Source of the DNA: a virus
IMG/VR virus record: IMGVR_UViG_3300045988_168162
Span: 32,001-96,000 of that record
Length of the DNA stretch: 64,000 nt
Direction: 5' to 3' (one strand)
Shown: one piece after another, positions 1 to 45,289 of the stretch
Numbering within the stretch: the stretch's first letter is position 1
Layout of the letters: every line of letters begins with the position of its first letter
The notes under the pieces: generated by a model
Told to the model about the DNA's origin: nothing
The model's input: only the letters and a program-made list of their open reading frames with translations
Databases searched by the model: none
Translations under genes and position numbers: made by a program

Positions 1-1008
1 GTGCTTTTGAAAAAGAGAACTTAATTCTTTCGTCAGTGCCGGAATGATTTGATTCAATACACTCAAAGCACCATATTTTTTATTGAGTCCTGTTTTCTTT
101 TTGGCGAGTTTTTCTTGCCATGCAGTATCCTTATGTACGAGGTTATGATGCTTTGCGCATAAGCCAACGATATTGGCAATTGTGTTGCTGCCATTTTTAT
201 GTTGCGGTACTACATGATGGTAATGTTCAATAGGTTTCTTACAAAACAAGCAGTGCTGTTCCTGCATTTCAGAAACAGCGCTCTCAAGATCCCCTTTTTG
301 ATAGAGTGGACCCTGTTGGTACTGCCACTTCTTGATAACGGGATTATCAAGCTGCATGAAAGCAAATTTGTTAACCTCAAGCACAACATCACTGATGGGA
401 AGGAATTTTTGAATTTTCTTAACCAAGTTGATGTGTGTTTTGAGCAACTGATTTGCAGTAGGCGTAAGCCAGCCTTCCGGTCTTGTGCGATTGTTGAACT
501 TTGCTTCTTTGTTCTTGATGCCAATGCAAAGGACTTCTTTCTCGCAACCCGGAAGATGGCGCTTAATGACGCCAATTTCTTTTGCACGCTTGCTGACGCT
601 GCCATTTTGGGCAGTGTCTTGCTTCACGCACTTTTTAGAAATAGTGCCATTGGCTTTTGCTCTCCGCTGACGACGGCATCGTCTACCATTGGTACGTCTT
701 GCACGGCGGGAATCCTTACGCTTTTTCATCAATTTCGGAATTTCCTTGTTACGGGTTTCCAGATGTGCGGTAAAGACTGCCGTGCCGTCCGTTTTAACAA
801 CAGCAACACCGATATTGGTTCTGCCGGGGTCGATGCCCAAGTAAAGCGGTTGCACCACATCGTCAGTTTCATACAACAGTTGAATGGTAAACGGCTTTGT
901 TCTTACGGCTCGTGCTTTCTGCTCTTTAAGAAGATGGCGTACATGCCCACAGCGAGTCGTAGGCATTAAAGGTTTACCGTCTTTATTAAGCACATATACA
1001 GTGGACAT
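1..1008 (-). CDS. iscB: IscB-like RNA-guided nuclease (OMEGA), N-terminal 336 aa; C-terminus lies beyond the window start
   Basis: Frame is open from ATG 1008 to base 1 (checked codon by codon; absent from the ORF track). Motifs: PLMP (KDGKPLMP), RuvC-I LGIDPG, Arg-rich bridge [16 protein letters not shown], Ruv[44 protein letters not shown] lies 6 nt upstream. Confidence 0.85.
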
Positions 1009-1230
1009 ATACGCCACCTCCTTTACGATAAGTCTCCCCTGCCGAAGCGGGAGGTTATGTTTCCCTTGGCTAGGTAGCAGCTTAGTAGTGTTGCAAGCTG
1101 GGAAAACCTGCAAGTACATCTGCTATCTTGATGTACAAAAGTACATCTGCCTGTGATATTGAAGGAACTTAGTGGAATGATATTATTTTATTAAAGTTCT
1201 TCAATACCCTACGACGATGTGCCGTTTCGG
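1009..1230 (-). ncRNA. Candidate IscB omega RNA (HEARO-type scaffold); boundaries approximate
   Basis: ORF-free 220 nt directly 5' of iscB on the same strand, where IscB omega RNAs are encoded. Hairpins: GATGTAC-TTTT-GTACATC, CAGCTT..AAGCTG, and UUCG-capped CTCCCGC-TTCG-GCAGGGGAG. Confidence 0.45.
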
Positions 1231-1239
1231 AAACCCGGA

Positions 1240-1317
1240 TGGAACTGGAGGGCCTCGAACCCAAAATCATAATCCCAGTTATGAGCTGGACGCACTAACC
1301 ATTTGTGCTACAGTTCC
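1240..1317 (-). tRNA. tRNA-like gene with CAU anticodon (Met or Ile2), aberrant variable/T region
   Basis: Acceptor GGAACTG/CAGTTCC, D arm GCAC-AAATGGTTA-GTGC, anticodon arm TCCAG-CTCATAA-CTGGG, T loop TTCGAGG. Only 3 clean T-stem pairs, and about 10 nt sit between the anticodon and T arms. Confidence 0.45.
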
Positions 1318-1409
1318 TTATAAAATGGTTCCGTTTTTATCCTTAACGGTTTCCGTAACAGATAAGTAAGAATGAAACAAATATAGAAGGAGGGGGATAC
1401 CAGCCCCCA

Positions 1410-1485
1410 TGGTCGAATAGGCGAAACTCGAATTCGCGGCCTCTTGCTCCCAGGGCAAGCGTTCTACCAGCTGAACTACTACTCG
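1410..1485 (-). tRNA. tRNA-Pro (anticodon UGG), CCA encoded, unusual C at position 33
   Basis: Full 76-nt cloverleaf folded by hand: CGAGTAG TA GTTC AGCTGGTA GAAC G CTTGC CCTGGGA GCAAG AGGCC GCGAA TTCGAGT TTCGC CTATTCG A CCA. Confidence 0.8.
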
Positions 1486-3574: not shown

Positions 3575-3603
3575 TCCCGGCCTGTATGACCGGGGTATTT
3601 TTT
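3575..3603. terminator. Hairpin CCCGG-N9-CCGGG with T-run on the + side and A-run on the - side (bidirectional-looking)
   Basis: Lies immediately 3' of the minus gene that ends at 3602. GTATTTTTTA follows the stem on the + strand. Confidence 0.45.
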
Positions 3604-4693
3604 ATTGGTCGCTGATTTCACACCAACGATAATAATTGATAGTGCAAAGGCGTTTATTGCAAGTGGAAACGTAGGAATCTGCAATTGCTTTTGCCTCTTC
3701 AGGCGGAAGATTCTCTTTTTTTAAACGATAGAATATCCCGCTTAACATGATGGTTTCAGGGGTAAGTGTTTTGCTGCGGAACGGAGAATCCGACGGCAAT
3801 CTTTCCTGATGGGGTTTCATATTGCGGCTAAACGTATGCAGATATTCAAGACGTGTGCCATTTTTAGCTTTGTTCTCTGCACGATCCGACTTGATATTAC
3901 TTCTTGCTTTTACGACACGGCGAAGAATGTAGTCGGTTTCATCGTCGCAATATCTTAACACAGTGGGAGTATAAGTGCCATCGTTACGCGGAGATTTATA
4001 GAGACCGTTACAAGTATCTGACACAATGGCCAGTTTTATTGTGCGTAAGAAATCTGCATCCGTGATACTGATGCTATGACCATTATACTGGATATACGCG
4101 GGGCTGTTTTCTGTCTTATCGTGAAAATCCTTATGAGTCATATTCTCGATTTCATTACGTGAGAAACCGATCCACAGTAAGACAAGGCTGGCAGCCAGGT
4201 GAATATACGTATCATTGGGGAATACCGCGAAACAGAAATCTTTAAATTCCTGCTCAGAAAAGAACATGGAATGACGATAATCTTCATCTGACTGAAATAC
4301 CAACTTATTGCCGATTACTGGCTTTTTGGTAGCATTGCCATCGCGGAGCATTTTTGTTCTGAAATAGATATCTTGTAGTGGATGCTGATTGCAGACAGCG
4401 TTAGGCACATAACCGGAAGAAGAGAGCCAATCAAGATACTGACGCATGGAGTTAATATAATAAATCAAGGAACGGTATTTCTCTGAATTTGTTTCTTTTA
4501 CAATAGCAGAATAGGAAAAATATTGTTCCAGACATTGCTCGACCTGGGAAGGTGTGAGATCTTGAAATGGGCACTGGACCTGCTTTTCAAAAAGAGCAAT
4601 TACTTTATTGATATATTTTTTAGTTGCGATGGTGGTGGTCTTATTATATTGATCGATATAGGAAATATGCGCGGAATCGTTTTGAGTTGCCAT
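3602..4693 (-). CDS. Hypothetical protein (363 aa)
   Basis: ORF track. A segment LLWIGFSRNEIENMTHKDF faintly resembles tyrosine-recombinase box I, but no HxxR..Y was found. Confidence 0.6.
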   Translation of the reverse strand: MATQNDSAHISYIDQYNKTTTIATKKYINKVIALFEKQVQCPFQDLTPSQVEQCLEQYFSYSAIVKETNSEKYRSLIYYINSMRQYLDWLSSSGYVPNAVCNQHPLQDIYFRTKMLRDGNATKKPVIGNKLVFQSDEDYRHSMFFSEQEFKDFCFAVFPNDTYIHLAASLVLLWIGFSRNEIENMTHKDFHDKTENSPAYIQYNGHSISITDADFLRTIKLAIVSDTCNGLYKSPRNDGTYTPTVLRYCDDETDYILRRVVKARSNIKSDRAENKAKNGTRLEYLHTFSRNMKPHQERLPSDSPFRSKTLTPETIMLSGIFYRLKKENLPPEEAKAIADSYVSTCNKRLCTINYYRWCEISDQ

Positions 4694-4751: not shown

Positions 4752-5177
4752 TTAGCAGGGAATCGCTACTTGCTCAGACTGTGGAGCCGGCATATTAGAA
4801 ATGATCATGAAAGGATTTTGTGCGAGGATAGCCGGGATGACACGCTGCCAATTTTCGTTTGTGAAATAGCCAATCGGCTCAGACAATTGAGAATGCAGCA
4901 GCACATCGCGGCTTTCCACGACCAGGGTGGAATCATAGATAAGGCCATCCACTTCTGCCGCGGCAAAATCTACGTGAGCAGGATTGCGGCGGCCAAAGCG
5001 CTTTGTTGTGAAAGGAATCACCTCGCACTGGCCGGAGAAGCGGTTGTAGCGATTGTTGCTGATGACCAGATAGGGGTGAAGACCAACATACTTGTGAGTC
5101 GGGCTGGGGGTGCCCTGTTCGACGTACCCCAGCCGGATCTCTCCCAATTTAGGGATCGAAGTGCCGGGTGTAAACAT
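4752..5177 (-). CDS. PemK/MazF-family endoribonuclease toxin-like protein
   Basis: GEIRLGYV..HPYLVISNNRYNRFSGQCEVIPFTTK..NPAHVDF..DSTLVVESRDVL aligns motif by motif with MazF/EndoA (RPVLVIQND.GNRFSPT..V..IT..LPTHV). Confidence 0.75.
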   Translation of the reverse strand: MFTPGTSIPKLGEIRLGYVEQGTPSPTHKYVGLHPYLVISNNRYNRFSGQCEVIPFTTKRFGRRNPAHVDFAAAEVDGLIYDSTLVVESRDVLLHSQLSEPIGYFTNENWQRVIPAILAQNPFMIISNMPAPQSEQVAIPC

Positions 5178-5298
5178 AGGTTTAAATTCCTCCTTAAAGG
5201 ATATTCAGTAGGATTTTGGGTGCTTGCTTTGTTTTTTCTTACTGTAGCTATAGTATAGCATAGTTTTAACGGCACGTCAATAGCTTTTTGAAAAAAAT

Positions 5299-5604
5299 TT
5301 ATGCCATGGTAATGCGGAACGCCATGCCATGGGACAGCACTTGAAGTGCCACGCAAGAGGGGGTGGAGCCAAGCTCATATTCAACCTTAACAGCAGGGCC
5401 CTCGATACAAAAAGAAGCGGTATCGTTTACAAGATCCAACTGTTTTACGGTTCCGCCTGATTTATAAAGGGAAAGAGAAGCGCTGTTAAAACGGATCGTC
5501 AGGCCAGTTCGTCCATCAGGGCTATAATGATGTACGCTGATCGCATTGTACTGGCGAAAGATACTGGCAAGCTCCTGAAGCGTGATGGTTTTAGATTGCG
5601 GCAT
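5299..5604 (-). CDS. Hypothetical protein (101 aa)
   Basis: Internal ATG 5604 is preceded by GAGGAGGAGA. The longer ORF-track start lacks an SD. Confidence 0.55.
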   Translation of the reverse strand: MPQSKTITLQELASIFRQYNAISVHHYSPDGRTGLTIRFNSASLSLYKSGGTVKQLDLVNDTASFCIEGPAVKVEYELGSTPSCVALQVLSHGMAFRITMA

Positions 5605-5840
5605 GAAATTTCTCCTCCTCTTTGCCTGGATGTCCGAATTATAGGACACACTATATTGTATAATACTGTTATGTAAAGAAAGCACCCGCTGCCAGGCCCC
5701 TCATCCTGGCAACAACCGGCAACAACGATACAACCAACTGTTGTGTTTTGAATCTAGTATACACCAATCATTTCCAGATTGCAATAGGGAACCGGTAGCA
5801 ATTGGTTGCTCCTACTGAGATTTGAACGGAGGCATGTAGT

Positions 5841-6056
5841 ATGGTAAATGTTGGAAGCAAAATCAAATTATGGCGGACAAACCGCGGAATCAACCAGAAA
5901 CAGATGGCTGCCTTGACCGGGTTTAGTTTGCGGGCGCTGCAAGGATGGGAAAGAGGGGAGACATCACCCAGCCTGGACGCCGTAGTAGCACTGGCACTGG
6001 CTATGAACGTTACGGCGGATTGGTTGCTTGGGCTGGACGAAGATCAGAAGTCCTGA
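5841..6056 (+). CDS. XRE/Cro-CI family helix-turn-helix regulator
   Basis: IKLWRTNRGINQKQMAALTGFSLRALQGWERGETSPSLDAVVALALAMNV is the classic HTH_3 pattern. It is the only + gene in the leftward block. Confidence 0.8.
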   Translation: MVNVGSKIKLWRTNRGINQKQMAALTGFSLRALQGWERGETSPSLDAVVALALAMNVTADWLLGLDEDQKS

Positions 6057-6310
6057 AGTGCGGAGATCATTTCGCGCAGATCGTCGACCATGTTGGCAAG
6101 GTCATCCTTTTGTTCTTCCAGCGTGCCGATTCCTTCTTCCATTTCGATACCGCGGTCAGACTGCTGCAAAGATTCCGGCATGTTATCAAAGGCTTCGGAT
6201 TCATCATCATAGATTTGTTCGAGCAGGATCTGCTGTTCTTCGAGTGCGTCAGCAATAGTGCCTAGCCGTTTTGCGACGGACTTGAGCTGCTTACGACGAT
6301 CGTTATTCAT
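6044..6310 (-). CDS. Hypothetical acidic protein (88 aa)
   Basis: ORF track; compact fit to neighbours. Confidence 0.55.
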   Translation of the reverse strand: MNNDRRKQLKSVAKRLGTIADALEEQQILLEQIYDDESEAFDNMPESLQQSDRGIEMEEGIGTLEEQKDDLANMVDDLREMISALQDF

Positions 6311-6325
6311 AATAGACCTTCCTTA

Positions 6326-7792
6326 TTATAATAGGGGAGCATTGTGCTCCTGCATAAAAAGTTCTGCGTTTCGGCGCAGGAGACAGGGATCATTTTGGAA
6401 CTTGCCATCTACCACGCATTGCAGAAGATGGTTAAAGCATTGGCCGAACAAAGGGCCAGGACGATAGCCCATCTCCATAAGATCATGACCATTGATGTGC
6501 AGGTCCTGGATGGAGAGCTTGCGCCCCTCGAAAATTGCGATAGCGAGATACAGGTATGTGATTTCGGCCTTGCGCATAGCGTTCATAGTGCCAAACTTGG
6601 TATAATCGACACCGTGGGCGTAGAGATCAGCAAAACGGACAGCCATAAGCAGCTGGGCATTGACAGGACCAAGAGCGGCCAGCAGACGATTGGCACAGCG
6701 GACGGTGGGTTCAAATTGGCGGTCGTGGTTTTTGATGAGCAGGACGATCCGTTCCCGTTCCGCGTTAGAAAACTTGAGGCGGCGAAGAATGTCATCGGCA
6801 AGTTCGGCACTTTTTTCAGCATGGCCGTAAAAGTGGCCGGTGCCGCCATCATCGACCGTATAGCATACTGGTTTGGCAATATCATGCAAAAGCATCGTTA
6901 TGCAGAGCTCGAACCAGTGAGCGTGGATAGCAGCGGTAAACTCGGGGAGTTTTTGGGTGACGCTCTTCAGTTCCACGACAGACTTTAGAATATGATCTTG
7001 CACGGTGTAGATATGATAGGGACTGTGCTGCTGAAAATCACGACTGAGATAAAGTTCCGGGATAATTTCTTCCAGTACGTCGATATAATCGAAAAGAAGC
7101 AGACTGAAATCATCGTGCTCATAGCTGGAGGTGAAGATTTTGCGGAGTTCGGACTGTACACGTTCGGCGGAAAGACCGACAAGCATCTGAACATTCGCAT
7201 GAATTGCTGCTTCGGTTTGTACATCGATCGTCAAATCATAGCTGACGGCAAAGCGCAGGGCACGTAAGATACGCAGAGGGTCCTCCTGGAAGCGTTTGTT
7301 AGGGTCACCAACGCATTTGATGAAATTGCTGCACATATCCGCATAGCCTTTAAAGGGGTCGACGATCCCAATCGTGTAAGTGCCTTCTTGGGATGCATCA
7401 TCATTCGGTAAAATTCTGCCAGCGATGGCATTCATGGTGAAATCACGGCGGGCAAGATCTTCTGTGATATCATCGACAAACTCGACCGTATCAGGATGGC
7501 GGTGGTCTTTGTAAATGCCGTCTTTACGCATGGTTGTGACTTCGTACTGGCCGTCCGGCATGATAACTGTAACAGTGCCATGCTTGATGCCGGTATCAAT
7601 GGTAGGAGAGAAGAGAGATTTTACCGTGGTTGGGTCGGCCTGGGTGACAACATCATAATCGTGCGGTGTTTTATCGAATAGAATGTCCCGCATACAGCCA
7701 CCAACAAGGTAGGTTTTATAACCGGCACCTTCTAACTGGAGGACAAGGGTAACAAGATCATGCGGCAGGGGGATACCTTGTAGTACAGGCAT
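6326..7792 (-). CDS. cca: CCA-adding tRNA nucleotidyltransferase with C-terminal HD domain
   Basis: LVGGCMRDILF..PHDYDVVT, RKDGIYKDHRHPDTVEF, EDLARRDFTMNAIA (class II head domain). HD motif MLLHDIAKP. Confidence 0.9.
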   Translation of the reverse strand: MPVLQGIPLPHDLVTLVLQLEGAGYKTYLVGGCMRDILFDKTPHDYDVVTQADPTTVKSLFSPTIDTGIKHGTVTVIMPDGQYEVTTMRKDGIYKDHRHPDTVEFVDDITEDLARRDFTMNAIAGRILPNDDASQEGTYTIGIVDPFKGYADMCSNFIKCVGDPNKRFQEDPLRILRALRFAVSYDLTIDVQTEAAIHANVQMLVGLSAERVQSELRKIFTSSYEHDDFSLLLFDYIDVLEEIIPELYLSRDFQQHSPYHIYTVQDHILKSVVELKSVTQKLPEFTAAIHAHWFELCITMLLHDIAKPVCYTVDDGGTGHFYGHAEKSAELADDILRRLKFSNAERERIVLLIKNHDRQFEPTVRCANRLLAALGPVNAQLLMAVRFADLYAHGVDYTKFGTMNAMRKAEITYLYLAIAIFEGRKLSIQDLHINGHDLMEMGYRPGPLFGQCFNHLLQCVVDGKFQNDPCLLRRNAELFMQEHNAPLL

Positions 7793-8798
7793 GGTAGTTT
7801 ACCTCCATAACGAGTTCTTCTACCCGTTTATAATCCGAGGTTTTGGGGAGCATGGTGTTGGCTTTGTCATATTGCAGGCGCTTTTCATACTGATCGATGA
7901 GATCGAAAAACTCCTGGTAGTAAGTGCCGTCCGGCTTTTGGAACTTACCGGCGCGGATCTCCAAGAGGAAATCGCGGTCGTTTTCGCGGTAGGTGTTGAT
8001 CTCGCCTTTTTCAAGAATATCAAAGCACATGAGATAAAGCCAGACCAGGTGCATGGCGTGCTTATTCAGATGCAGATCATCCTTTTTGCTGTTGCGCTTT
8101 CCGAGCTTGGCGTACTGGCCGATGACCGTGCCGAGATCAGAATTCATTTCCTTAAAGCTGCGGAGTGGATAATGTTTAAGGTCGCAGTCAATGAAGATTT
8201 CTGTCTCCATGCCCTCTGTTACGCCTTTGTCAATATATAGGTGAACGGAATCACCAGGGATATCGGCGTGCTGCAAACGGAAGTTTTCAAAGACAGATTT
8301 GCAGGTGCCTAGAATATGGCGCTCTTTTTCATCCTGGTGATAGTGGTCATGTGCCAGGGCATTTTGCAGGCGGCGCAGCTGCTGATTGGCATAACCGCCA
8401 AAAGCGTGGACGGCCGTTTGAGAGAGAAATAGTTTTTTATTTTCAATAAGCATCTGGCCCGCCGGAGTGATGTAAAAATACTGGTCCGGTTTATTGCCGA
8501 GAAGTTCGATCGTGTTGGGATTACAAGAGAGCAGTAGACTGACGAGCTTATTGAAACCGAAGATCGTAGTGTCGGTGCCAGTATCAACACGCTGCTCAAA
8601 ATTAGAGAAACCGAGAATATCCTGCGGGGAGTTCATGGCACAGCCGCGGACATCCACATCCGAACCTTCGACATTGGTGCCATAGGCGTGACTGCCGCCG
8701 AGCGTTAGGAACATAATGTTTTCGCCCAGGTGCGGATCGGTGCGCAAGAAATCATAAGCAGGGGACAAGATCAGGTCATCGAATTCGTTTTGTGTCAT
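7758..8798 (-). CDS. Pol-beta-fold nucleotidyltransferase, RlaP-like (RNA-repair-associated family)
   Basis: N-terminal LTLGGSHAYGTNVEGSDVDVRGC matches the GS-x-YG..SD-x-D signature. Overlaps the cca start by 35 nt. Confidence 0.55.
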   Translation of the reverse strand: MTQNEFDDLILSPAYDFLRTDPHLGENIMFLTLGGSHAYGTNVEGSDVDVRGCAMNSPQDILGFSNFEQRVDTGTDTTIFGFNKLVSLLLSCNPNTIELLGNKPDQYFYITPAGQMLIENKKLFLSQTAVHAFGGYANQQLRRLQNALAHDHYHQDEKERHILGTCKSVFENFRLQHADIPGDSVHLYIDKGVTEGMETEIFIDCDLKHYPLRSFKEMNSDLGTVIGQYAKLGKRNSKKDDLHLNKHAMHLVWLYLMCFDILEKGEINTYRENDRDFLLEIRAGKFQKPDGTYYQEFFDLIDQYEKRLQYDKANTMLPKTSDYKRVEELVMEVNYHACTTRYPPAA

Positions 8799-8810
8799 AG
8801 GACCTCCTTA

Positions 8811-9446
8811 TCAATCGAGTAATGCTTTGTCGATGGTTTGGAAATTGGCGCGGTGGATATAGAGCGCACGGCCGTCGATCATGAGTTTGGTTGTCTTGGG
8901 CAGATTTTGACAGACTTCCCAATAGACATTCTCGCCGCTGTAAGCGCAGATGGGATCACCGAGCTGGCTTTGGATAACGACAACAACGGGCTTACCGAAA
9001 GCGTTTTTATAAGAATTGACGGTTTTAGCAATAATAGGGTTCTCACCCAGACTGCCATCGGTCGTGCTGTGAATATCCTGAACCTGAAAGTCAACATCAG
9101 GCTCCAAGCCTTCCTCGGCAAAAATAACGGTGGAGCCGCAGTTATTGATCTGTTTACCATCTACCGTAATGGTAACGACGGACGACATCGTTTTTGTAAC
9201 GCCCCAGCCGCCATCACTGGTGTAGGTGTATTCCTTAACGACGTTGGCGTTCATATCAATTTTTGAACCGGCGACATCCATGAATTCTTCGCCGTCATTG
9301 GTATAGAACTGGCAATTATATGTATGGCCTGTGATGCTGCCATTCATATCATGGACGCCGCTTTCTACGTTGGCGCAGGAAGAGAGGGATGCCGCCAGGA
9401 CGATGACGAGTGCAAGCGATGTGATATGGTGTATTGTCTTTTTCAT
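8811..9446 (-). CDS. Lipoprotein (211 aa)
   Basis: Signal peptide plus lipobox: MKKTIHHITSLALVIVLAASLSSC. Confidence 0.7.
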   Translation of the reverse strand: MKKTIHHITSLALVIVLAASLSSCANVESGVHDMNGSITGHTYNCQFYTNDGEEFMDVAGSKIDMNANVVKEYTYTSDGGWGVTKTMSSVVTITVDGKQINNCGSTVIFAEEGLEPDVDFQVQDIHSTTDGSLGENPIIAKTVNSYKNAFGKPVVVVIQSQLGDPICAYSGENVYWEVCQNLPKTTKLMIDGRALYIHRANFQTIDKALLD

Positions 9447-9457
9447 TGTGGGCCTCC

Positions 9458-10423
9458 TTACTGATTGGCGAGAGCGATCAGGGAGTTGCCGCAGGTGATG
9501 CGGTCGGCGTCCTCTTCTTTACTGGGAACAAACACGATGACGTCCCAACCGTCTTTGACGAGTGGCTGCTCGAACTTTTCGTAAACATCAAAATCGGTAA
9601 CGATTTCATAACCTTCGCTGACGGCCTCGACCGTTTCGTGGATGGGGGTGATCTTGACAATACACTTTTCTTTATCGAAGTATTTATTCATCAGATCCAC
9701 ATCGAGATTGTTCTGGGACGTGACAGCGAAGTTAAGGGTGTATTTACGTTTTTTAGGGGCGGGCAATTCTTTGATAATGTTGCTGATCTCCTGCAAAGAA
9801 AGGGAATGGCCGCGGAACATTTCATTGCGGGCGGCTTCATCCAATGTGTTGATGGAGAACTGCAGGCCGAAGCCATCCTCGCCGCCATAAACAGCGCCGG
9901 TACTGACCCATTGGTGCAGGAACTCTTTCAGGTTTTTATTTGCCTTTGGCATCATGGTAGAAACAACAGGATGATAGGTATCGAATTTGATATCGGAATT
10001 ACGGTCTTGCAGCATCCGTGCAATGAGCCTGGCGGACGTGATGACGTTGGGATTGAAAGTCGGTTCACCCATACGGGCGTAGTGAACATTCAATCTGGCG
10101 CCGTTATGGATACCTGACAGAGAGATGGCGGACATGATCTCGGACAAAAGCTCGGCCGTGGTGGCATTACCGTGGAACCCGAGCTTAGGGCAATCGCAGA
10201 AATTACAATTCATCGGGCAGCCCTTCTGACTGGAGACTGTGACGACCAGTTTTTCTTTGATATTCACCGGCTTATGCTCGACTTTTTCGATACGTTTGGT
10301 GTAGCCGAGAAAATCGGCTTTGATATTGTTTTCTTTGCCATAATCACCGACATAGAGATACTCAAGGCAAAGATCTGTATCGGAAATGATTTTGCCGGTG
10401 TGGGTTTGTGTAATCGTTCTCAT
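9458..10423 (-). CDS. Radical SAM enzyme, RlmN/Cfr-like
   Basis: VSSQKGCPMNCNFCDC (CxxxCxxC in the RlmN-type context VSSQ.GC), MGEPTFNP, and C-terminal DADRITCGNS, comparable to RlmN GDDIDAACGQ. Confidence 0.6.
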   Translation of the reverse strand: MRTITQTHTGKIISDTDLCLEYLYVGDYGKENNIKADFLGYTKRIEKVEHKPVNIKEKLVVTVSSQKGCPMNCNFCDCPKLGFHGNATTAELLSEIMSAISLSGIHNGARLNVHYARMGEPTFNPNVITSARLIARMLQDRNSDIKFDTYHPVVSTMMPKANKNLKEFLHQWVSTGAVYGGEDGFGLQFSINTLDEAARNEMFRGHSLSLQEISNIIKELPAPKKRKYTLNFAVTSQNNLDVDLMNKYFDKEKCIVKITPIHETVEAVSEGYEIVTDFDVYEKFEQPLVKDGWDVIVFVPSKEEDADRITCGNSLIALANQ

Positions 10424-10435
10424 TTTAAAACCTCC

Positions 10436-10813
10436 TTATCTGCGCCGCCGTTTCATCTCAGCAAGCCGTCCATACTCGCAGGAATACCGGAAATCCCAGC
10501 CGCTGATATGGTTGAGGTATCCCTCTGATACGGGAACACCTTCGTCCTCGTAAACATGCTGCCACCAGATCTTTTTGCGTTGCTCCGGCCACATGCCATC
10601 GGTGCCAAGCTGGTTGTACCACTCGCCGCGCTGGTTGTTGTAAGTGCCAGACCATTTGCGACGCACAGCACGAACCTGAGCAGAAACATCATTATCGGTC
10701 TCGCTGGGAATGCCGTAGCCTCCGGTGGAGTTGCTGCGATTCTCCGCGCCCATCATGGCGGCAGAGCCAAACAGGCCAGCGACACCTAACAGAAAAGCAG
10801 TTGCACCTAACAT
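10436..10813 (-). CDS. Membrane-anchored hypothetical protein (125 aa)
   Basis: ATG 10813 is preceded by TAGGAGTG. N-terminal TM segment MLGATAFLLGVAGLFGSAAMM. Confidence 0.6.
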   Translation of the reverse strand: MLGATAFLLGVAGLFGSAAMMGAENRSNSTGGYGIPSETDNDVSAQVRAVRRKWSGTYNNQRGEWYNQLGTDGMWPEQRKKIWWQHVYEDEGVPVSEGYLNHISGWDFRYSCEYGRLAEMKRRRR

Positions 10814-10826
10814 AAGATCACTCCTA

Positions 10827-11033
10827 TTAAATTTTTTTAGCACGACAGCGCATGATTTGGATGGCTTGTACGCTGCGGTTTAGTTTTGCGGACAGTTCGC
10901 GGTCTGGAATGGTATGGGAAAGAACCTGTGTGATTTCATGTGCGGTCCAGCCGCGGGGCTCGTACCCTTGGGTTTGCCGGTAATTATTGCGGCGATAGGT
11001 ATTTTTGGCTTCGTTATCTAATGTACTTCTTAT
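10827..11033 (-). CDS. Start-less in-frame ORF with Myb/SANT-like HTH (..GWTAHEITQVLSHTIPDRELSAKLNRSVQAIQIMRCRAKKI)
   Basis: Same frame as the 11040-11432 gene and separated from it only by TGA TGA. No ATG/GTG/TTG occurs until 7 codons before the stop. Confidence 0.3.
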   Translation of the reverse strand: MRSTLDNEAKNTYRRNNYRQTQGYEPRGWTAHEITQVLSHTIPDRELSAKLNRSVQAIQIMRCRAKKI

Positions 11034-12967: not shown

Positions 12968-13600
12968 TTATTTAAGCGTTTCGTTTACGAAAAAGATGTT
13001 GTTATGTTCGTAGCATTTATGACATGTCAGGCAGTTGCGGGCACCGCAGTTGATTTCGACATTGTGCTGTTTGCTGTACGCCTTATCGTAGACGGTGAAT
13101 ACCTTATCGATCCAGCTGTAGTTGGAGAAATCCTGCGAGACCTGATTGAGGTGGTCGGAGCTGTATACGCAAATCAGATTGTCCGGCTTGCCAAGCTCCT
13201 TAATGGCCTTATCCATGAAAGCTGCGTTCTTCGTCCAGAGAGCGATCGTACACCACGGATTCGCCCTGGCAATGCGGATGTAGTTCTTGGCGTGGGTCAC
13301 ATTGACAAGGTCGCCATGGCTTTCAAACCGGGCAATGCGGCTATTCAGGACGGGCAGCTCGTAAACCTCAAGGTCATGACTGGAAAGGATCTTGGTGTTT
13401 CCTGCATAGCGGTTTCGTGCGGCGGGATAGATGGCCAGACCACGCTTGGCATAGCAGTGTGAGCATACGCTGGTTTCATCCTTGGCACGCTGCTCACAAA
13501 TGGGATTGCAGAGCATACTGGTGGTGATGGTCGGAATGCCATTCATTTTGCCTTGCGGGTGAGAGATAAAAATCTGTTCTATGACACGATCATTTTTCAT
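12968..13600 (-). CDS. Cys-rich hypothetical protein (210 aa)
   Basis: ATG 13600 follows GAAAGGAT. Contains LCNPICEQRAKDETSVCSHCY and FESHGDL..ALWTKN. Confidence 0.55.
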   Translation of the reverse strand: MKNDRVIEQIFISHPQGKMNGIPTITTSMLCNPICEQRAKDETSVCSHCYAKRGLAIYPAARNRYAGNTKILSSHDLEVYELPVLNSRIARFESHGDLVNVTHAKNYIRIARANPWCTIALWTKNAAFMDKAIKELGKPDNLICVYSSDHLNQVSQDFSNYSWIDKVFTVYDKAYSKQHNVEINCGARNCLTCHKCYEHNNIFFVNETLK

Positions 13601-13749
13601 TTTATGTATCCTTTCTTGGCAGCGCACAAGAGCGGATACAATATTCAATTTTTATATCTCACCCTTGGTGGCTGGTATTACAGCATCAGCGCGACGAAAA
13701 GTGGTTGTTTTGTTTCAATCAGGGCAAGGAGATCCATTATGATTCCTCC

Positions 13750-13950
13750 TCACTCATCCATCGGGATGGCATCCGTCACCTCATAGTGGCCGTTTCGCAT
13801 GGAATAGCCAATGTTACTGGCAACATCAGCGCTCATGTTTGCATCACCATTATTCAATGCCTGACTTACCTTTTCGATGGCATCATCAGCGCTCTCAGCA
13901 TCAATGTAGACAGTCGTGGAAACAGAAATGACAACTTTGTAGGTATTCAT
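13750..13950 (-). CDS. Hypothetical protein (66 aa)
   Basis: ORF track; stop/start overlap with the next gene. Confidence 0.5.
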   Translation of the reverse strand: MNTYKVVISVSTTVYIDAESADDAIEKVSQALNNGDANMSADVASNIGYSMRNGHYEVTDAIPMDE

Positions 13951-14186
13951 AATACACTCTCCTTGAAAAAGCCCCAGTTTGTCATAGTCGATTCGATACG
14001 GTCGGAAAGATCGCCATAATCACAGCCGTAGATGTTTGTATCACTGCAGGATGCATCACCGATGGCATCCATGTCGCGGTCGGGATTGTCGATCTTGACA
14101 CCCTTTTCATCGAGAAAGTCTTCGAAGATGTCAATGATCTGGCCGATAAATTCGAGCTTATCGCTGTTTGTCATATGATATATCAC
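13947..14186 (-). CDS. Hypothetical acidic protein (79 aa)
   Basis: ORF track; operon packing. Confidence 0.5.
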   Translation of the reverse strand: MIYHMTNSDKLEFIGQIIDIFEDFLDEKGVKIDNPDRDMDAIGDASCSDTNIYGCDYGDLSDRIESTMTNWGFFKESVL

Positions 14187-14248
14187 TCCTTTGTGTAACC
14201 GGTGGCGGTGATTTCATTTTTAAAGTTGATCATTTTCAGAACCTCTTA

Positions 14249-14437
14249 TCAGTCATTCATATATTGGAAGTCGTGAATAATACCGAGCTTGTTTAGAAGA
14301 TCGATTAGGCCATCATGGACCCCTTCAATATAACCAGTATCATAACCAGGGTCAGAAATTTCAAGATTGTCGTCATTGTCTTTGATAAGAGCGGCAACAA
14401 CATTGCGGATTTGTGACGACGTATAGGAATTTTCCAT
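14249..14437 (-). CDS. Hypothetical protein (62 aa)
   Basis: ORF track. Confidence 0.45.
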   Translation of the reverse strand: MENSYTSSQIRNVVAALIKDNDDNLEISDPGYDTGYIEGVHDGLIDLLNKLGIIHDFQYMND

Positions 14438-14455
14438 TTGCAGAACCCCTCCGTT

Positions 14456-14632
14456 TTATTCAACTTCTACCATTTCGAGCAGATCATATGCACTGGAGCC
14501 GTCATCGGTTTCATCGTCAAGGCGCTGAAGCAGCTCTTTCATTGCATCATTTTTATCTTCTGCTGTGACAAGGTAGGTATCGCTAAATTTGCGTTTATTG
14601 TTGTAAACACGACAATCATACAGATGTCTCAT
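14456..14632 (-). CDS. Small hypothetical protein (58 aa, MRHLYDCRVYNNKRKF..)
   Basis: Below the ORF-track cutoff; overlaps the upstream stop. Confidence 0.4.
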   Translation of the reverse strand: MRHLYDCRVYNNKRKFSDTYLVTAEDKNDAMKELLQRLDDETDDGSSAYDLLEMVEVE

Positions 14633-14823
14633 ACTTCGTCATGCTCCTTTGCGACAAGTTTCTGCAGCTTTTCATACAGTTTGCTGCAGGCATTAGCTCG
14701 CTGCTTTGCCAACTTGGCCTCTCCGCCTTCAAGTGTGCTTGCATATTCCTCGAAGTTTTCGCGGTTGGCTTCCAAGGCATCAATAATGGTCCAGAGTTGA
14801 TTATCAGTTAAAGTGATTTTCAT
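14629..14823 (-). CDS. Hypothetical protein (64 aa)
   Basis: ATG 14823 follows GGAGGTG. Confidence 0.5.
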   Translation of the reverse strand: MKITLTDNQLWTIIDALEANRENFEEYASTLEGGEAKLAKQRANACSKLYEKLQKLVAKEHDEV

Positions 14824-14836
14824 GGTTACACCTCCG

Positions 14837-15055
14837 TCAATGCCAGTCGTGGGAATTAAATTCTTCGATTGCACGGTCAAGCTCGTCACAATCATTTGAA
14901 ATGCGTTTTTGATCGTCCAACCACTTAGGAGGAACAACCATATCTTTCCTTTCATTTCTTGTGATTTGTTCTTCTGCAAAACACAGTGATTCGTTTGCGC
15001 GTTCCCGCTCATCAGAAAGAGCCTTATAAATTCGTTGTAAGGTTTTAAAGGTCAT
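14837..15055 (-). CDS. Hypothetical protein (72 aa)
   Basis: ATG 15055 follows GAGGTG. Confidence 0.5.
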   Translation of the reverse strand: MTFKTLQRIYKALSDERERANESLCFAEEQITRNERKDMVVPPKWLDDQKRISNDCDELDRAIEEFNSHDWH

Positions 15056-15082
15056 ACCGCACCTCAATCGAAGCTTTGTTTT

Positions 15083-15355
15083 TTATTCGTCCGTTAAAAT
15101 GATATCTTCGCCAACGACCAGCGAGAGCGGATGAGAATTATAATGATCTGTGATACCCCAGCAGTTATAATACTCGTTATCTTCATCCAGACCAACGCCC
15201 TCATTTACATCATCCAAAATATCTTGCGTAGTTGGAAGTTCGGTTTCGTCGGCAGTATCAATGCCAGCATCCAAAACCTCTTTTCGCTTGGCAGCGCACT
15301 CTGCAATAAAGCGTTTGACAGTCCGATAACCATTGACAGTAAAAACGTATCGCAT
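15083..15355 (-). CDS. Hypothetical protein (90 aa)
   Basis: ORF track. Confidence 0.5.
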   Translation of the reverse strand: MRYVFTVNGYRTVKRFIAECAAKRKEVLDAGIDTADETELPTTQDILDDVNEGVGLDEDNEYYNCWGITDHYNSHPLSLVVGEDIILTDE

Positions 15356-15367
15356 GTTGTACCTCCG

Positions 15368-15754
15368 TCATTGACAAATTTCCCAGCCTTCATCCCACAG
15401 ATAACGTTCTCTAAGCTCACACCAAATCTGTCTTGAAATATCCTTGATCTCTTGATGTACACAGATGTGTTTCCAAATTTCTTTGGTTTCCTCGACTGTG
15501 CGTGGTTCGTAGATGTTGTTGAGCCACTTTGCAATGGTTTCGTTGGTACCATCTGGAAATATAAAGCGCGGTTTGTTTGTGTCATCGGAAATGTAGGACC
15601 CAAACCACCGGTTGAGGGTGCCTTTCGGCGCGGCTTTTTCGCGCTGTTTCAGATCCTTTGTTTTGACACCACCAAAGACGGCGGCGACTGCGCAGACTTC
15701 CTCGTCAAAGCGCGGATAGCTGGCGCTACCGGCATATTCATAACTCATGCCCAT
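15368..15754 (-). CDS. Hypothetical protein (128 aa)
   Basis: ATG 15754 follows AAAGGGAA. Confidence 0.5.
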   Translation of the reverse strand: MGMSYEYAGSASYPRFDEEVCAVAAVFGGVKTKDLKQREKAAPKGTLNRWFGSYISDDTNKPRFIFPDGTNETIAKWLNNIYEPRTVEETKEIWKHICVHQEIKDISRQIWCELRERYLWDEGWEICQ

Positions 15755-15814
15755 AATAGGTTCCCTTTCATCAAACATAAACTTTATTGATTCGCGATTA
15801 ACGTAGTATCGTTG

Positions 15815-16270
15815 TTATTCCTTTTCTACAACTTCTATAATTTTATAAAAGTCTCCATATTCCTTAAAGATACGTTCCTGCTCTGCAGATGCGGCCTCAA
15901 AATCAAACCTTTTTGCAGCAGCAAGGCAAGCTGTATCTGCGCATTCGTCCAAAGAAATATAAAGTGGAACACGGGATGTACGGATGCTTCGCTTAAGAAC
16001 ATATTGAGGTTCATCGATGCTAATACTGAATACAGACCATGTTGTAACATCATTTGCTGGCGTATTTTTTTCTAGTGTGATTTTTAATGTCTGATGGTCA
16101 CTTCTCATACAACAATTGATACCATTTTTAAGGCTATTGTCGAATTCTTTGTTGGCGTCACGAACTGCTGCTTGAAAGCACTCAACATCACTATCAAATG
16201 GGCCAACCACAGTAATATCTGGATCAAAAGAATATGTACACAAGTAATACCATTTACACATAAGTTTCAC
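15815..16270 (-). CDS. Hypothetical protein (151 aa)
   Basis: ORF track. Confidence 0.5.
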   Translation of the reverse strand: MKLMCKWYYLCTYSFDPDITVVGPFDSDVECFQAAVRDANKEFDNSLKNGINCCMRSDHQTLKITLEKNTPANDVTTWSVFSISIDEPQYVLKRSIRTSRVPLYISLDECADTACLAAAKRFDFEAASAEQERIFKEYGDFYKIIEVVEKE

Positions 16271-16299
16271 CTCATCTTTTCACAAAAATAGAAAACCTA

Positions 16300-16698
16300 T
16301 CAGTCGTAGAAATCTCTCACGATAGTTTCGCACCATTCATCATTCGGGATGCCGTCATCGGCGCTGTCGATGAAAGAGTTGGCAATCGTCTCCGCATCGC
16401 CTTCATCCATGGCACGCTTGATACGATCTTCGATTTCATCTGTAGACCATTCATCATCGTATCTGTATTTGTTTTGGAAGTATTCACGGATGTAATACTT
16501 GGCTTCTTCAGTAGCACGTCGCATGAGTTCATTTTCATGCTCATCTACAACGATAGAATCAAGGTTTGTGAGGACAAGTTCAAAAGATTCAATGCGACCG
16601 AGTTCGTACATTGAAAGAAACTTGTCACCGAGCATCACATAATTGTCCATTTTCTTTTTGCTGGTAGCCAGTAATTCTTCTAAGTTTTTCTTAGTCAT
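16300..16698 (-). CDS. Hypothetical acidic protein (132 aa)
   Basis: ORF track. Confidence 0.55.
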   Translation of the reverse strand: MTKKNLEELLATSKKKMDNYVMLGDKFLSMYELGRIESFELVLTNLDSIVVDEHENELMRRATEEAKYYIREYFQNKYRYDDEWSTDEIEDRIKRAMDEGDAETIANSFIDSADDGIPNDEWCETIVRDFYD

Positions 16699-16728
16699 AA
16701 ATGTTACCTCAATTCATAAAACGATTTC

Positions 16729-16947
16729 TTAGCGAATGGGGATATTCTTTCTGAGAGAAAAAACGTAAGCAAACTTAGGGTCAAGATCAAAAACGTGGTC
16801 TGTGCGGAACACTTCTTCGGCGTTGTTTTGCAAAACTCGTTTTGCTTTTTCACTGGCTTCCTGTTTGGAGTTGGCGGCAAGAATAACTTCTTCACCATAA
16901 ATTCTTGCGCCGTCATCCATAACACCAACAACTTTGTACCAATTCAT
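16729..16947 (-). CDS. Hypothetical protein (72 aa)
   Basis: ORF track. Confidence 0.5.
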   Translation of the reverse strand: MNWYKVVGVMDDGARIYGEEVILAANSKQEASEKAKRVLQNNAEEVFRTDHVFDLDPKFAYVFSLRKNIPIR

Positions 16948-24398: not shown

Positions 24399-25589
24399 TC
24401 AAGCTGCTTTGGGCTTGAGATCGTCAGAGATACAGGTGAGAAGATCGGCACCATATCTGGCGTTGTACTTTTGGATGACACCGGCAATGGTGGCGGGTTC
24501 TACACTAAGGTAGTAGCTGATATTGCCGCGGAACTTTTGGAGATCCTCTTCGTCCCATTTTTTGCCGTTGCGGCGGTCTTTGAAATAGGTTTCGATGGTA
24601 GCTTTAAGGATTTTGTGGTTTCGATAACCAACGGTAATATCGCCATCCTTATTGAGCATCAGACCGAGCATCCAGTTACGACCGGCGCGGGTGCCGAAGT
24701 GGGTCTTTTCGGTATTCAAGGTAAAGGGAGCATCGAGTTCATGAAGCATGGCGATCAGTTCCCGCTCGACCTTGCGGTAGTTGAAGAAGACCCGGCAGGA
24801 GATATGAATATCATCGGCATAGCGGGTGTAACAGATGCGGTCTGTGATGGGCGTGCCATCTGGGTTGACTTTGCCGCTTTGGAACTGGTTGAGCAGGCGG
24901 GCAAACTTATGGTCGAAGGGAATCATCATGACATTGGTGATGAAAGGGGAGAACGGGGTGCCCTGTGGCAGGCCGTTATTGAGAAACGCCAGGCTTAAAG
25001 CGCGGCGAAGCTCCCTGCGGCCGGTGGGGTCTGCCAGGATCAGGTTGAAGGGATAGATCTCTTCCATCTGTTTGAAGACAAAGTGCGGTGTGGTGGATGG
25101 GAAAAAGCCGTGGAAATCATAATGGCAGAAGTACCAGCTGCGGAACCGCTGATGCTTGATAACGGCATCCTTGGTGGAGCGGCCATTGACATAGGCAAAA
25201 GCGCAGGTGTGGTGGTCGGCAAACATCCAGCCGGACATCATATCCTTGAGCTGAGCCAATGCCTTTTTGAGTTCCGGGTGCGGGGCATCAATGGGACGCA
25301 TCTTGCCGCCGGTCTTTTTCGGGATCTCGAAATGATCGTAGAGTTCCCATTTGTTGGGGTAATCGATCAGATCCTTATAGCAGGTATTGAACATCTTGAG
25401 CTGGCTGATCATGGCGTCCAGGCAAGTGATTTTCATAATGCGCTCAGGAACTTTGTCGCATACAACGGTGCGGGTGGAGCCGTGACCGCCGGAACGTAAG
25501 GAATCCAGCGGAATATCGACACCGAGCATAAGTTCCTCGAACGTGATTTGACGAACGGTTTCGGGGGTATTGTAAGTTATGTATACCAT
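24399..25589 (-). CDS. Reverse transcriptase, retron-like (396 aa)
   Basis: FEIPKKTGGKMRPIDAP, GRSTKDAVIKH (NAxxH-like), YDFHGFFPS, LPQGTPFSPFITN, YTRYADDIHIS, RNWMLGLMLN (VTG-like). ATG 25589 follows GAGGT; the ORF-track N-terminal extension covers the structured RNA. Confidence 0.85.
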   Translation of the reverse strand: MVYITYNTPETVRQITFEELMLGVDIPLDSLRSGGHGSTRTVVCDKVPERIMKITCLDAMISQLKMFNTCYKDLIDYPNKWELYDHFEIPKKTGGKMRPIDAPHPELKKALAQLKDMMSGWMFADHHTCAFAYVNGRSTKDAVIKHQRFRSWYFCHYDFHGFFPSTTPHFVFKQMEEIYPFNLILADPTGRRELRRALSLAFLNNGLPQGTPFSPFITNVMMIPFDHKFARLLNQFQSGKVNPDGTPITDRICYTRYADDIHISCRVFFNYRKVERELIAMLHELDAPFTLNTEKTHFGTRAGRNWMLGLMLNKDGDITVGYRNHKILKATIETYFKDRRNGKKWDEEDLQKFRGNISYYLSVEPATIAGVIQKYNARYGADLLTCISDDLKPKAA

Positions 25590-25607
25590 AGTGGTGTACC
25601 TCGATTG

Positions 25608-25944
25608 TGTTTGTGATCTTGAAGGAATGATGCTGATCTTGCGAAGCTGATCAGCTTCCTGGATTAGCTCCATACAGTGGTGGAATTGGCTTAAAACTCC
25701 AATCAGACAACTGACTGATGTCCAATCTGCGGCTGCCAAGTCTATTACATGACCAATCGACATCGATTGCCCGCTAAGTTAGCTTAAAATGCCCTTGATG
25801 TGAGCGGCGGAACTCGGCGATTCTTGTGGCACCCCCAGATGCGCCTGGCGCGTGCCTGCCCGGTCTGGGTAACAAATTCGTACTCTCGGATATGACCTGA
25901 GAGTCGTTGCGATTTACAAAATGCAACGGTAAACATCACAAACA
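25608..25944 (-). ncRNA. Structured RNA, copy C (337 nt) directly upstream of the RT; msr-msd-like candidate
   Basis: Perfect 10-bp closing helix TGTTTGTGAT (25935-25944) with ATCACAAACA (25608-25617). G then UUUAC follow the 5' arm. Contains the 42-nt module and many local hairpins. Confidence 0.55.
25863..25904 (-). repeat. Conserved RNA module, copy C (ACTCTC-AGGTCATATCC-GAGAGT ACGAATTTGTTACCCAGAC)
   Basis: CCCAGA pairs with TCTGGG at 25834-25839. Confidence 0.8.
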
Positions 25945-42142: not shown

Positions 42143-42484
42143 ATGGTGGAGAATAACAATATGTACTATGGGTTAGAGATCACTTGGCGAATGATAAACA
42201 AGACCATAAACAGGCCGAGTAAGGCTGTGCCTCATTGGATTTTCATTAAAGGCTATGACGCAGCGTCGGACAAAGCGTATGCCGAGCTGAACGGATATAA
42301 ATGGGAACCAAGTCCAGACAGATGGGTTTGCTCAAAATGCGGGGCGGCAACTAATGATATTTCTGCTAAGTGCTGCCCGCATTGTAATGTAGAGATGATT
42401 GGTAAGCCTGAAGTTATGTCGGAAACCATTGCAAGATTAAAAAAAGAAGTTCTTGAAGAAATGGAGGCAAAAAATGAGCTTTAA
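42143..42484 (+). CDS. Zinc-ribbon protein (113 aa)
   Basis: Contains CSKCG..CCPHC. Confidence 0.55.
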   Translation: MVENNNMYYGLEITWRMINKTINRPSKAVPHWIFIKGYDAASDKAYAELNGYKWEPSPDRWVCSKCGAATNDISAKCCPHCNVEMIGKPEVMSETIARLKKEVLEEMEAKNEL

Positions 42485-43298
42485 TGATGCCCTTGGTACT
42501 CGTATGAAAGAGTATTACGAGGCCGTTCCCAAAACTAAACTTATGCGACGTATGCCGGTAGCATTGAGAATCGACGGCAAGGCATTCCACACATTTACTC
42601 GTGGCTTTCAAAAACCTTTTGATATGATCCTGATGAAATCTATGTGGGACACCATGCGGTATCTTTGCCGGAATATCCAAGGCTGCGTGTTTGGCTATAC
42701 ACAGTCCGATGAAATCACGCTGATCCTGATTGACTACTAAACGCTTGCCACGGATGCTTGGTTCGATTACGAAGTCCAGAAGCTATGTAGCGTGTCCGCC
42801 AGCATGGCTACCATGGCATTTAATAATTTCTTTTCTGTTTGTGTTGACGATTATGGCAAAGCCAATATTGAAGACTGGTATCTTGGCGGCACAAATCGTG
42901 AGCTATCTGACAATGAACGCTCCGCTTTGAAGTACATAGAATCTTATACCAAATCATTGGCAGACGGCGCTATGTTTGATGCTCGTTGCTTCAATATCCC
43001 AAAAGAAGAAGTCTGCAATCTGATTTACTGGCGTCAGCTTGATGCGACACGCAATTCCATCCAGATGGTGGGACAAGCATATTTCTCACACAAACAGCTG
43101 GAGGGGAAGAAATGCAGTGATATTCAGGACATGCTTATGGAGCAATACAAAATCAATTGGGATAAATATACTACGCCATGTAAGCGCGGCACGGCCTGTA
43201 TTTATAAGGATGGCAAATGGGTCATCGACGCTGATATGCCTGTTCTGAAAGGTGAAGACCGCAAGTATGTTGACCAATACATTTTCGTAGGTGAGTAA
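42474..43298 (+). pseudogene. Thg1-like 3'-5' nucleotidyltransferase (tRNA-His guanylyltransferase family), interrupted by one in-frame TAA at 42738-42740
   Basis: GTRMKEYYE..LRIDGKAFHTFTRGF..KPFD..YTQSDEITLILIDY * TLATDAWFDYEVQKLCSVSASMATMAFNNFF. Both ORF-track pieces are in the same frame, and 42741-42791 is open. Confidence 0.65.
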
Positions 43299-44997: not shown

Positions 44998-45258
44998 ATG
45001 CAAGATAACATATACATTGAACAGTTTGAACCACATGCAGCGGAGATTGCACATAAAACGCATAACAAAATGAAAGCTAAAGAACTGGATTATATATTCG
45101 AGGGTCTTATAGCATCTTTGTGCGAGAATAGGAATCCGGTTGTAAAGCCAGTTACGGTTCATACAAATGCACGTTATGTGTGGTGCGATGACCACTGGGA
45201 GAAAGTAGGGGAGATAGATGGGTTATTCAACTTTTCCGGGTGTTCAAACAATCAATAA
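44998..45258 (+). CDS. Hypothetical protein (86 aa)
   Basis: ORF track. Could alternatively lie inside the IS left end. Confidence 0.4.
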   Translation: MQDNIYIEQFEPHAAEIAHKTHNKMKAKELDYIFEGLIASLCENRNPVVKPVTVHTNARYVWCDDHWEKVGEIDGLFNFSGCSNNQ

Positions 45259-45289
45259 GTGCAAAAATCCTTAAAGGAGGAGAACTACT

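Follow-up and report, generated by a model that had tools for sequence, protein, structure and literature searches.

An RlaP-CCA nucleotidyltransferase pair and an RlmN-fold radical SAM gene in an accessory-gene island of a gut phage

The RlaP and CCA genes and their island

We analysed a stretch of 64,000 nucleotides, here called the window, that corresponds to positions 32,001 to 96,000 of the IMG/VR virus record IMGVR_UViG_3300045988_168162. On its minus strand the window carries two overlapping nucleotidyltransferase genes: one for an RlaP-family Pol-beta nucleotidyltransferase of 346 aa (7758-8798) and one for a class II CCA-adding-type tRNA nucleotidyltransferase of 488 aa with a C-terminal HD domain (6326-7792). 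Both lie in a closely packed run of minus-strand genes between 3.6 and 10.9 kb, which is an accessory-gene island of a gut phage with a genome of roughly 89 kb. Domain calls are based on profile searches against curated cut-offs (Pfam, NCBIfam), on PHROGs and on PDB sequences, and L-numbers denote the related loci that were compared. The window is phage DNA and encodes a large terminase, a portal, a tail-fibre protein and a tyrosine integrase (Pfam and PHROG scans), with more than one integrase present. Megablast of the window found no near-identical phage in GenBank. IMG/VR holds contigs with 94-97% DNA identity over the compared segments, one of which, at 88,873 bp, suggests the genome size given above. 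The source samples of the phage are chiefly faecal and gut-derived.

The RlaP protein matches PF10127 with E=1.3e-16 (61.5 bits against a cut-off of 23) and phrog_388 with E=1e-50, and its Pol-beta catalytic motif GS...DVD is readable ('LGGSHAYGTNVEGSDVDVRG'; GGSHAYG...SDVDV). In the CCA protein PF01743 (110 bits), PF12627, PF01966 (HD) and PF13735 all exceed their cut-offs, phrog_2244 is matched with E=7e-59, and the best solved relatives of the head domain are the Planococcus and Bacillus CCA-adding enzymes (6ibp, E=7e-52; 1miv, E=3e-44). The motifs GGCMRD, DYDV, RRDFTMNA, EDPLRILR and HDIAKP are present, and alignment to 6ibp and 7otr shows motifs A-E; the NCBIfam CCA equivalog PRK13299 scores 254 bits, under its cut-off of 290. 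The start of the CCA gene overlaps the end of the RlaP gene by 35 nt. A first-pass annotation, made from the DNA letters alone, had named both genes and their overlap, a PemK/MazF-type gene and three tRNA-type genes, all of which are borne out; its radical SAM (S-adenosylmethionine) and Thg1-like calls hold in part, and as a whole its observation is partly confirmed.

RlaP and CCA genes are neighbours in other phages as well. Adjacency at 37-54% identity is found in L005, L047, L055, L111 and L284, and the genes are adjacent or close in L346, L348, L351, L354 and L355, as they are in L047, L055 and L284. At the locus of Flavonifractor sp. An82 (L111) they overlap by 26 nt, the order is radical SAM-RlaP-CCA and the lipoprotein gene of our island is missing. 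In L005 an RlaP that is 54% identical adjoins a CCA protein that is 37% identical; a DNA-ligase-like gene comes next, and after it a gene for a 736-aa protein with kinase, metallophosphatase and Rnl1 parts, which is predicted to be a full healing-and-sealing enzyme (Pnkp-type). The gene for this Pnkp-type protein adjoins a ThyX gene that carries an intein (13111-15321 and 15293-16930 of that locus). Between RlaP and CCA, a conserved protein of 320 aa that has no Pfam match is encoded in L055 (9047-10009), L348, L354 and L355 and could be a further, so far unrecognised component of the module. Among GenBank phage records, CCA-adding enzymes are found in 456 and RlaP in about 460.

Upstream of RlaP, the run begins with a predicted membrane protein of 135 aa (10436-10843), followed by a radical SAM protein of 321 aa with an RlmN fold that belongs to phrog_24834 (9458-10423) and by a DUF5052 lipoprotein of 211 aa (8811-9446; PF16475, E=1.7e-62). 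Downstream of the CCA gene lie genes for an 88-aa phrog_4068 protein (6044-6310), for a 128-aa protein (5299-5685, with a likely ATG start at 5607), for a PemK/MazF-fold protein of 141 aa (4752-5177) and, according to the list of open reading frames, for an integrase-like protein of 363 aa (3602-4693). All of these are on the minus strand. The single plus-strand gene, at 5841-6056, is divergently transcribed and encodes a Cro/C1-type helix-turn-helix regulator (PF01381, E=4e-14). PADLOC returned no match for the MazF-like, CCA, RlaP or radical SAM proteins of the island.

The MazF-like protein matches PF02452 (PemK_toxin) with E=1.8e-8 and 35 bits against a cut-off of 23.1, and phrog_1936 ('MazF-like growth inhibitor'). 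Homologues with 55-65% identity are encoded on 69 more distant phage contigs, with RlaP about 3 kb upstream in 64 and a tail-fibre gene downstream in 66. At one of these contigs (L216) the MazF-like gene is directly preceded by a homologue of 5299-5685 (33% over 70 aa, E=3e-6), and the two genes thus make up a conserved pair with an antitoxin-toxin arrangement. The PemK fold, the small conserved gene directly upstream and the antitoxin-first order are shared with MazEF and PemIK. Unlike in these systems, the partner is dissimilar to MazE and PemI, a gap of 121 nt takes the place of an overlap, and the catalytic Arg25 of B. subtilis MazF/EndoA is a His in the alignment, with Thr48 kept. This His could serve in acid-base catalysis. 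The candidate antitoxin has no family match and no similarity to any known antitoxin in Pfam, NCBIfam or PHROG. We treat the pair as a separate, putative toxin-antitoxin-like or host-shut-off module with no apparent mechanistic tie to the repair enzymes, and the earlier grouping of the MazF-like RNase with an RNA-repair toolkit is not supported.

Proposed repair of tRNA ends and other explanations

We hold it somewhat probable that the RlaP and CCA enzymes, which would be translationally coupled, rebuild tRNA 3' ends and that this pair is the functional core of the island. Members of the RlaP family add one or two nucleoside monophosphates to the 3'-OH ends of RNA, as demonstrated for Pseudomonas RlaP (PMC12776372). 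The phage protein would likewise add one or two nucleotides to a trimmed tRNA 3'-OH, an activity that is known from the family rather than from this protein. Acting in series after RlaP, the CCA enzyme would then restore the CCA tail, and its HD domain may remove a terminal 3' or 2',3'-cyclic phosphate, as judged from the E. coli enzyme. In relatives in which the Thg1-like protein (TLP) gene is intact, its product would refill 5'-truncated acceptor stems. This reading is supported by the adjacency of RlaP and CCA in distant phages, once near a Pnkp-type ligase, and by the presence of Thg1-like, RlaP, CCA or RtcB-like genes beside the radical SAM family. Thus far the end-repair theme of the first-pass annotation, which had seen a counter-measure with both a 5' and a 3' arm, stands for RlaP, CCA and the Thg1-like family on account of conserved adjacency, but the working 5' arm does not, and its interpretation is partly supported.

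A number of findings weigh against this reading, and they concern the CCA enzyme itself, the 5' arm, the sealing of broken tRNAs and the gene neighbourhoods. The sequence does not distinguish addition of CCA from that of CC alone, of A alone or of poly(A), and the enzyme is classified here as CCA-adding-type only. The 5' arm would depend on the Thg1-like gene on the plus strand at 42474-43298, which the earlier annotation had listed as a Thg1-like 3'-5' polymerase. The domain is there (PF04446, E=1.3e-27, 96.7 bits; phrog_4717, E=4e-83), with visible catalytic carboxylate motifs RIDG... and SDE, and the protein matches the B. thuringiensis TLP 4kgk with E=7e-57 and is therefore of the bacterial TLP type. 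The frame, however, is split by a TAA at 42738-42740 (codon 89), eleven codons past the catalytic SDE motif, into a part of 88 codons from the ATG at 42474 and a remainder of 186 codons. In all 32 relatives that were translated the equivalent codon specifies Gln (CAA or CAG) or Lys (AAG), and CAA is the codon of one relative that is identical over the 88 N-terminal residues. Stop-codon recoding was considered and rejected: TAA ends more frames than any other stop codon in a crude set of open reading frames, and the phage tRNAs (Met, Pro and Gly) include no suppressor. Together with the sense codons of the relatives, this points either to one C-to-T change that created the stop or to a sequencing error. 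The gene is a probable pseudogene in this genome, and the 5'-repair arm as it stands is predicted to be non-functional. In other phages the Thg1-like gene lies near RlaP: in L047 and L055 it precedes RlaP and CCA by 2-4 kb and shares their strand, and in L036 and L037 RlaP lies 1.3 kb upstream of it. Overall, the Thg1-like and RlaP genes of these four loci are within 2-6 kb of each other, with CCA present or absent.

The sealing step is the next point. Pfam and PHROG scans of the large open reading frames of the window revealed neither an RNA ligase nor Pnk, RtcB or KptA, and tblastn with Pnkp-Rnl1, an Rnl2-type ligase, RtcB and KptA returned nothing in the window or, on near-identical contigs, in the 8.6 kb and 9.8 kb that flank it. 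This negative result covers all but about 8 kb of the presumed 89-kb genome, and by position the remaining 8 kb probably hold structural genes. RlaP also has no associated RNA ligase among its neighbours in the window, although this association is behind the family name and L005 has such a ligase. As no ligase or kinase was found, tRNA ends could be mended, but the phage enzymes would not suffice by themselves to rejoin tRNAs that nucleases such as PrrC, RloC or VapC have cut in the anticodon loop. The earlier view of the genes as an answer to tRNA-cleaving defences is for this reason not supported for nucleases of this kind, and the likely source of damage would be nucleases or toxins that hit the acceptor end of tRNAs.

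The gene neighbourhoods lead to the explanation that competes best with end repair, namely that there is no toolkit and that independent cargo genes share a variable region beside the tail-fibre genes. The parts would then be a MazF toxin-antitoxin-like pair that serves prophage stability or exclusion, a lipoprotein with a role in exclusion, a metabolic radical SAM enzyme and RlaP-CCA. We regard this patchwork as quite possible, if on balance doubtful. Gene content differs between relatives, and since the neighbours vary, the adjacency inside the window is partly historical accident. The MazF-like gene and its partner are conserved as a pair of their own, and the distant contigs that carry the MazF-like gene lack CCA, radical SAM and DUF5052. 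Neighbours were counted within 6 kb of the radical SAM gene at 80 viral loci, and about 55 of these loci have none of the repair genes considered here. The family also occurs in replication and nucleotide-metabolism contexts (beside 3'-phosphoadenosine-5'-phosphosulfate reductase pairs, ParB or guanylate kinase), with replication modules in L001 and L088-L090. Four radical SAM copies that are 97-99% identical stand with DUF5052 and without RlaP-CCA (L277, L279-L281). The occurrence of these two genes without RlaP-CCA in different phage backbones therefore marks them as a mobile two-gene cassette, which by its distribution appears to land repeatedly, but not always, among tRNA-repair genes. The DUF5052 lipoprotein is probably unrelated to RNA repair and may have surface or exclusion functions.

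Against a mere patchwork stands the recurrence of different repair genes near the same radical SAM family. RlaP is found within 6 kb of the radical SAM gene at 11 of the 80 viral loci, CCA at 8, a Thg1-like gene at 10, an RtcB-like gene at 3 and an Rnl2-like ligase at 1. In L111 and L284, which represent two independent lineages, radical SAM, RlaP and CCA genes follow one another directly on a single strand, both times without DUF5052 in the cluster, and at 10 loci a Thg1-like gene precedes the radical SAM gene by about 0.9 kb (about 1.5-2 kb from start to start). Single loci join the radical SAM gene to two tRNA genes and RtcB, in this order (L121), or to tRNA genes and Ro60 (L176), and in L320 an array of 20 tRNA genes ends 113 nt upstream of it. 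tRNA genes stand beside the radical SAM gene in 14 of 29 loci from metagenome-assembled genomes and in 6 of the 80 viral loci, which gives no firm enrichment.

Support for the own tRNAs of the phage is a simpler reading than end repair. Here the CCA enzyme, with or without RlaP, would mature phage tRNAs and raise the late tRNA supply without any role in counter-defence. The window has three tRNA genes on the minus strand at 1240-2396 (Met-CAT, Pro-TGG and Gly-TCC), its near-identical relatives have 6-7, and many of the phage records with a CCA-adding enzyme are tRNA-rich. The Pro and Gly genes encode CCA; the Met-like gene (1240-1317), which has a lower score (47.9 bits) and an unusual variable region, does not and has TCC after the discriminator base. 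However, hosts of the Firmicutes type depend on a CCA enzyme of their own, intact tRNAs normally mature without any part being played by RlaP or Thg1-like proteins, and the RlaP-CCA pair of L005 sits beside a Pnkp-Rnl1 repair enzyme. We therefore consider housekeeping rather unlikely. Two further observations were made in this tRNA region: the first 1.2-1.4 kb of the window (1-1436) do not align to the closest relatives, and an Rfam DUF3800-XI RNA motif lies between the tRNA genes on the minus strand at 1765-1814 (44.3 bits, gathering threshold 37.8).

The radical SAM protein

The first-pass annotation had called the radical SAM protein RlmN/Cfr-like, which holds for the enzyme class and the fold but not for orthology. 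PF04055 scores 25.2 bits, below its cut-off of 29.5, the RlmN model TIGR00048 scores 43.2 bits against a cut-off of 290 and over residues 46-131 only, and the Cfr models score 24-27 against 468-550. Matches to radical SAM families start at about residue 46, and the own family of the protein is phrog_24834 (function unknown; E=5e-81). Like RlmN and Cfr it has a CX3CX2C motif within the SSQxGCxxxCxFC cluster motif and a C-terminal cysteine, Cys311 in a CG(N/Q) motif, which is equivalent to RlmN Cys355 and is kept in 28 of 32 family members. Unlike in these enzymes, the position of E. coli RlmN Cys118 is Thr62 and is not a Cys across the phrog_24834 sequences. RlmN and Cfr require both mechanistic cysteines, and the Cys118 equivalent resolves the enzyme-RNA adduct. 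An AlphaFold2 model of the protein (predicted local distance difference test score, pLDDT, 93) has a short N-terminal beta-strand region. In Foldseek its best neighbour is RlmN with E=4e-12, a template modelling (TM) score of 0.63 and 16% identity; the top ten are all RlmN-type methyltransferases, nine of them E. coli RlmN chains and one a Sphaerobacter homologue, and other radical SAM enzymes follow at 1e-5 or worse. The sequence and the model thus place the protein in a distinct clade with a predicted RlmN fold and argue that it is no RlmN or Cfr orthologue. That it is nevertheless a true RNA methyl synthase which protects A37 of tRNA or A2503 of rRNA, as first proposed, we judge unlikely, since its structural match, its RlmN-like cluster-binding region and its Cys355 equivalent are set against the missing Cys118, the low profile score and sequence identity, and the transporter fusions of its cellular relatives.

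These relatives were found among 906 that were retrieved from a search of 1.8 billion cluster representatives. Chromosomal fusion proteins of 810-860 aa from gut Clostridia and Bacilli (L117, L118, L120, L122 and L125; proteins P0133 and P0140) consist of an N-terminal QueT-type S-component of an energy-coupling factor (ECF) transporter (PF06177), a radical SAM part with 37-39% identity and a C-terminal methylthioadenosine/S-adenosylhomocysteine nucleosidase. A second, sister clade has fusions with isochorismatase-type hydrolases (P0215, P0246, P0263 and P0267). For a Lachnospiraceae homologue with 59% identity the gene context is uninformative. The transporter fusion makes a small-molecule substrate likelier than RNA methylation, and by its relatives the phage protein more likely acts on a small molecule, possibly in the conversion of queuine to preQ1. 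A role of the fused nucleosidase as queuosine hydrolase was rejected, as it scores as an MtnN equivalog; an MtnN-type nucleosidase fits the clearance of 5'-deoxyadenosine, a by-product of radical SAM reactions.

The closest parallel in gene context is the queK-qrtT-queL operon of C. difficile, which encodes an ECF S-component and the radical SAM queuine lyase QueL (PMC11570991, PMC11477304). Like QueL (CD1684, Q186P0), the fused relatives are radical SAM proteins of gut Firmicutes tied to an ECF S-component, a likeness of gene context and not of sequence. Unlike in the QueL operon, no preQ1 riboswitch was found upstream of the QueT fusions at gathering or E<=5 thresholds, and the fused nucleosidase is of the MtnN and not of the QueK type. 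No QueL-named NCBIfam family is among the matches of the radical SAM and fusion proteins, and no C. difficile locus is among the best 80 genome loci listed. By analogy with these fusions, a QueL-like activity may be the leading alternative to the RlmN view. One can go further and picture phrog_24834 as a phage-borne, queuine-lyase-like enzyme in the service of tRNA repair, an idea that we consider improbable. In such a scheme a nuclease would remove or damage the wobble position of queuosine (Q)-tRNAs, the end-filling enzymes would restore a plain nucleotide, and the radical SAM enzyme would regenerate preQ1 from queuine so that the host tRNA-guanine transglycosylase could re-modify the repaired Q-tRNAs. 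If true, this would matter most in gut hosts that are unable to make preQ1 de novo, and phage tRNA-repair islands would have a small-molecule radical SAM enzyme as a recurrent member that has so far gone unnoticed.

A second radical SAM protein of 298 aa is encoded on the plus strand at 44078-44974, two genes downstream of the Thg1-like gene. It has sub-threshold MoaA- and viperin-like matches (PADLOC pVip, E=1.4e-11; NCBIfam MoaA, E=2.5e-12) and is found in only 6 of 80 related Thg1 loci. Just downstream of it lies an IS605-family TnpB gene (45290-46399; OrfB_IS605 and Cas12f1-like TNB) in a segment of 1.3 kb (45221-46548) that is missing from relatives whose flanking DNA is about 90-98% identical, and the segment appears to be a recent insertion. 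Elsewhere in the window, a 454-aa reverse transcriptase on the minus strand (24399-25763; PADLOC retron reverse transcriptase type II-A, E=3.9e-45, and PF00078) is assigned from these matches to the phage-borne retron-like enzymes; no non-coding RNA or effector was identified for it. On the plus strand at 48669-51245 an 858-aa protein matches PF05183 (eukaryotic-type RNA-dependent RNA polymerase) with E=1.8e-11 and phrog_8308 with E=1e-81, and we take it to resemble the YonO/crAss-type class of single-subunit RNA polymerases.

Comparison with known phage RNA-repair systems

Much current work is devoted to defences that target tRNA, such as PrrC, RloC, retron and PARIS-type effectors, and little has been charted of how phages counter them by means other than Pnk and Rnl1 of T4. 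The island itself adds little new principle. It indicates that a mid-sized gut phage can hold end-filling enzymes without a ligase, which points to damage at the termini of tRNAs and not at the anticodon loop. The part most worth following is the radical SAM family. phrog_24834 is a very abundant uncharacterised family with thousands of copies in gut metagenomes that recurs beside RlaP, CCA, Thg1-like or RtcB genes, and it makes a good target for biochemistry.

In T4, Pnk and Rnl1 heal and seal tRNA-Lys that was cleaved by PrrC, and the genes described here would likewise be a phage-encoded answer to tRNA damage. Unlike in T4, no homologue of the kinase/phosphatase or of the ligase was found, and resealing of the anticodon loop is not available from the phage genes. 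T4 also encodes an RlaP homologue, NrdC.11 (PMC12776372). The first-pass annotation was aware of no such combination in a phage, but for jumbo phages RlaP, a CCA-adding enzyme and Thg1 have already been described as the part of RNA repair that restores RNA ends (Iyer et al., 2021; PMC7824862), a work that credits the RlaP concept to an earlier RNA-repair survey, and PHROGs includes all three families. The genes of the present phage belong to the same three families and would follow the same logic, the replacement of nucleotides lost after nuclease attack. In contrast to the jumbo phages, in which the distribution of RlaP mirrors that of ligases (PMC7824862), no ligase was found with RlaP here, the genome is of about 89 kb, the Thg1-like gene is broken and the module comes with a linked radical SAM gene. 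Thus, less expected in comparison with these systems are the ligase-free end-repair set in a mid-sized gut phage and its recurrent link to an RlmN-fold radical SAM family.

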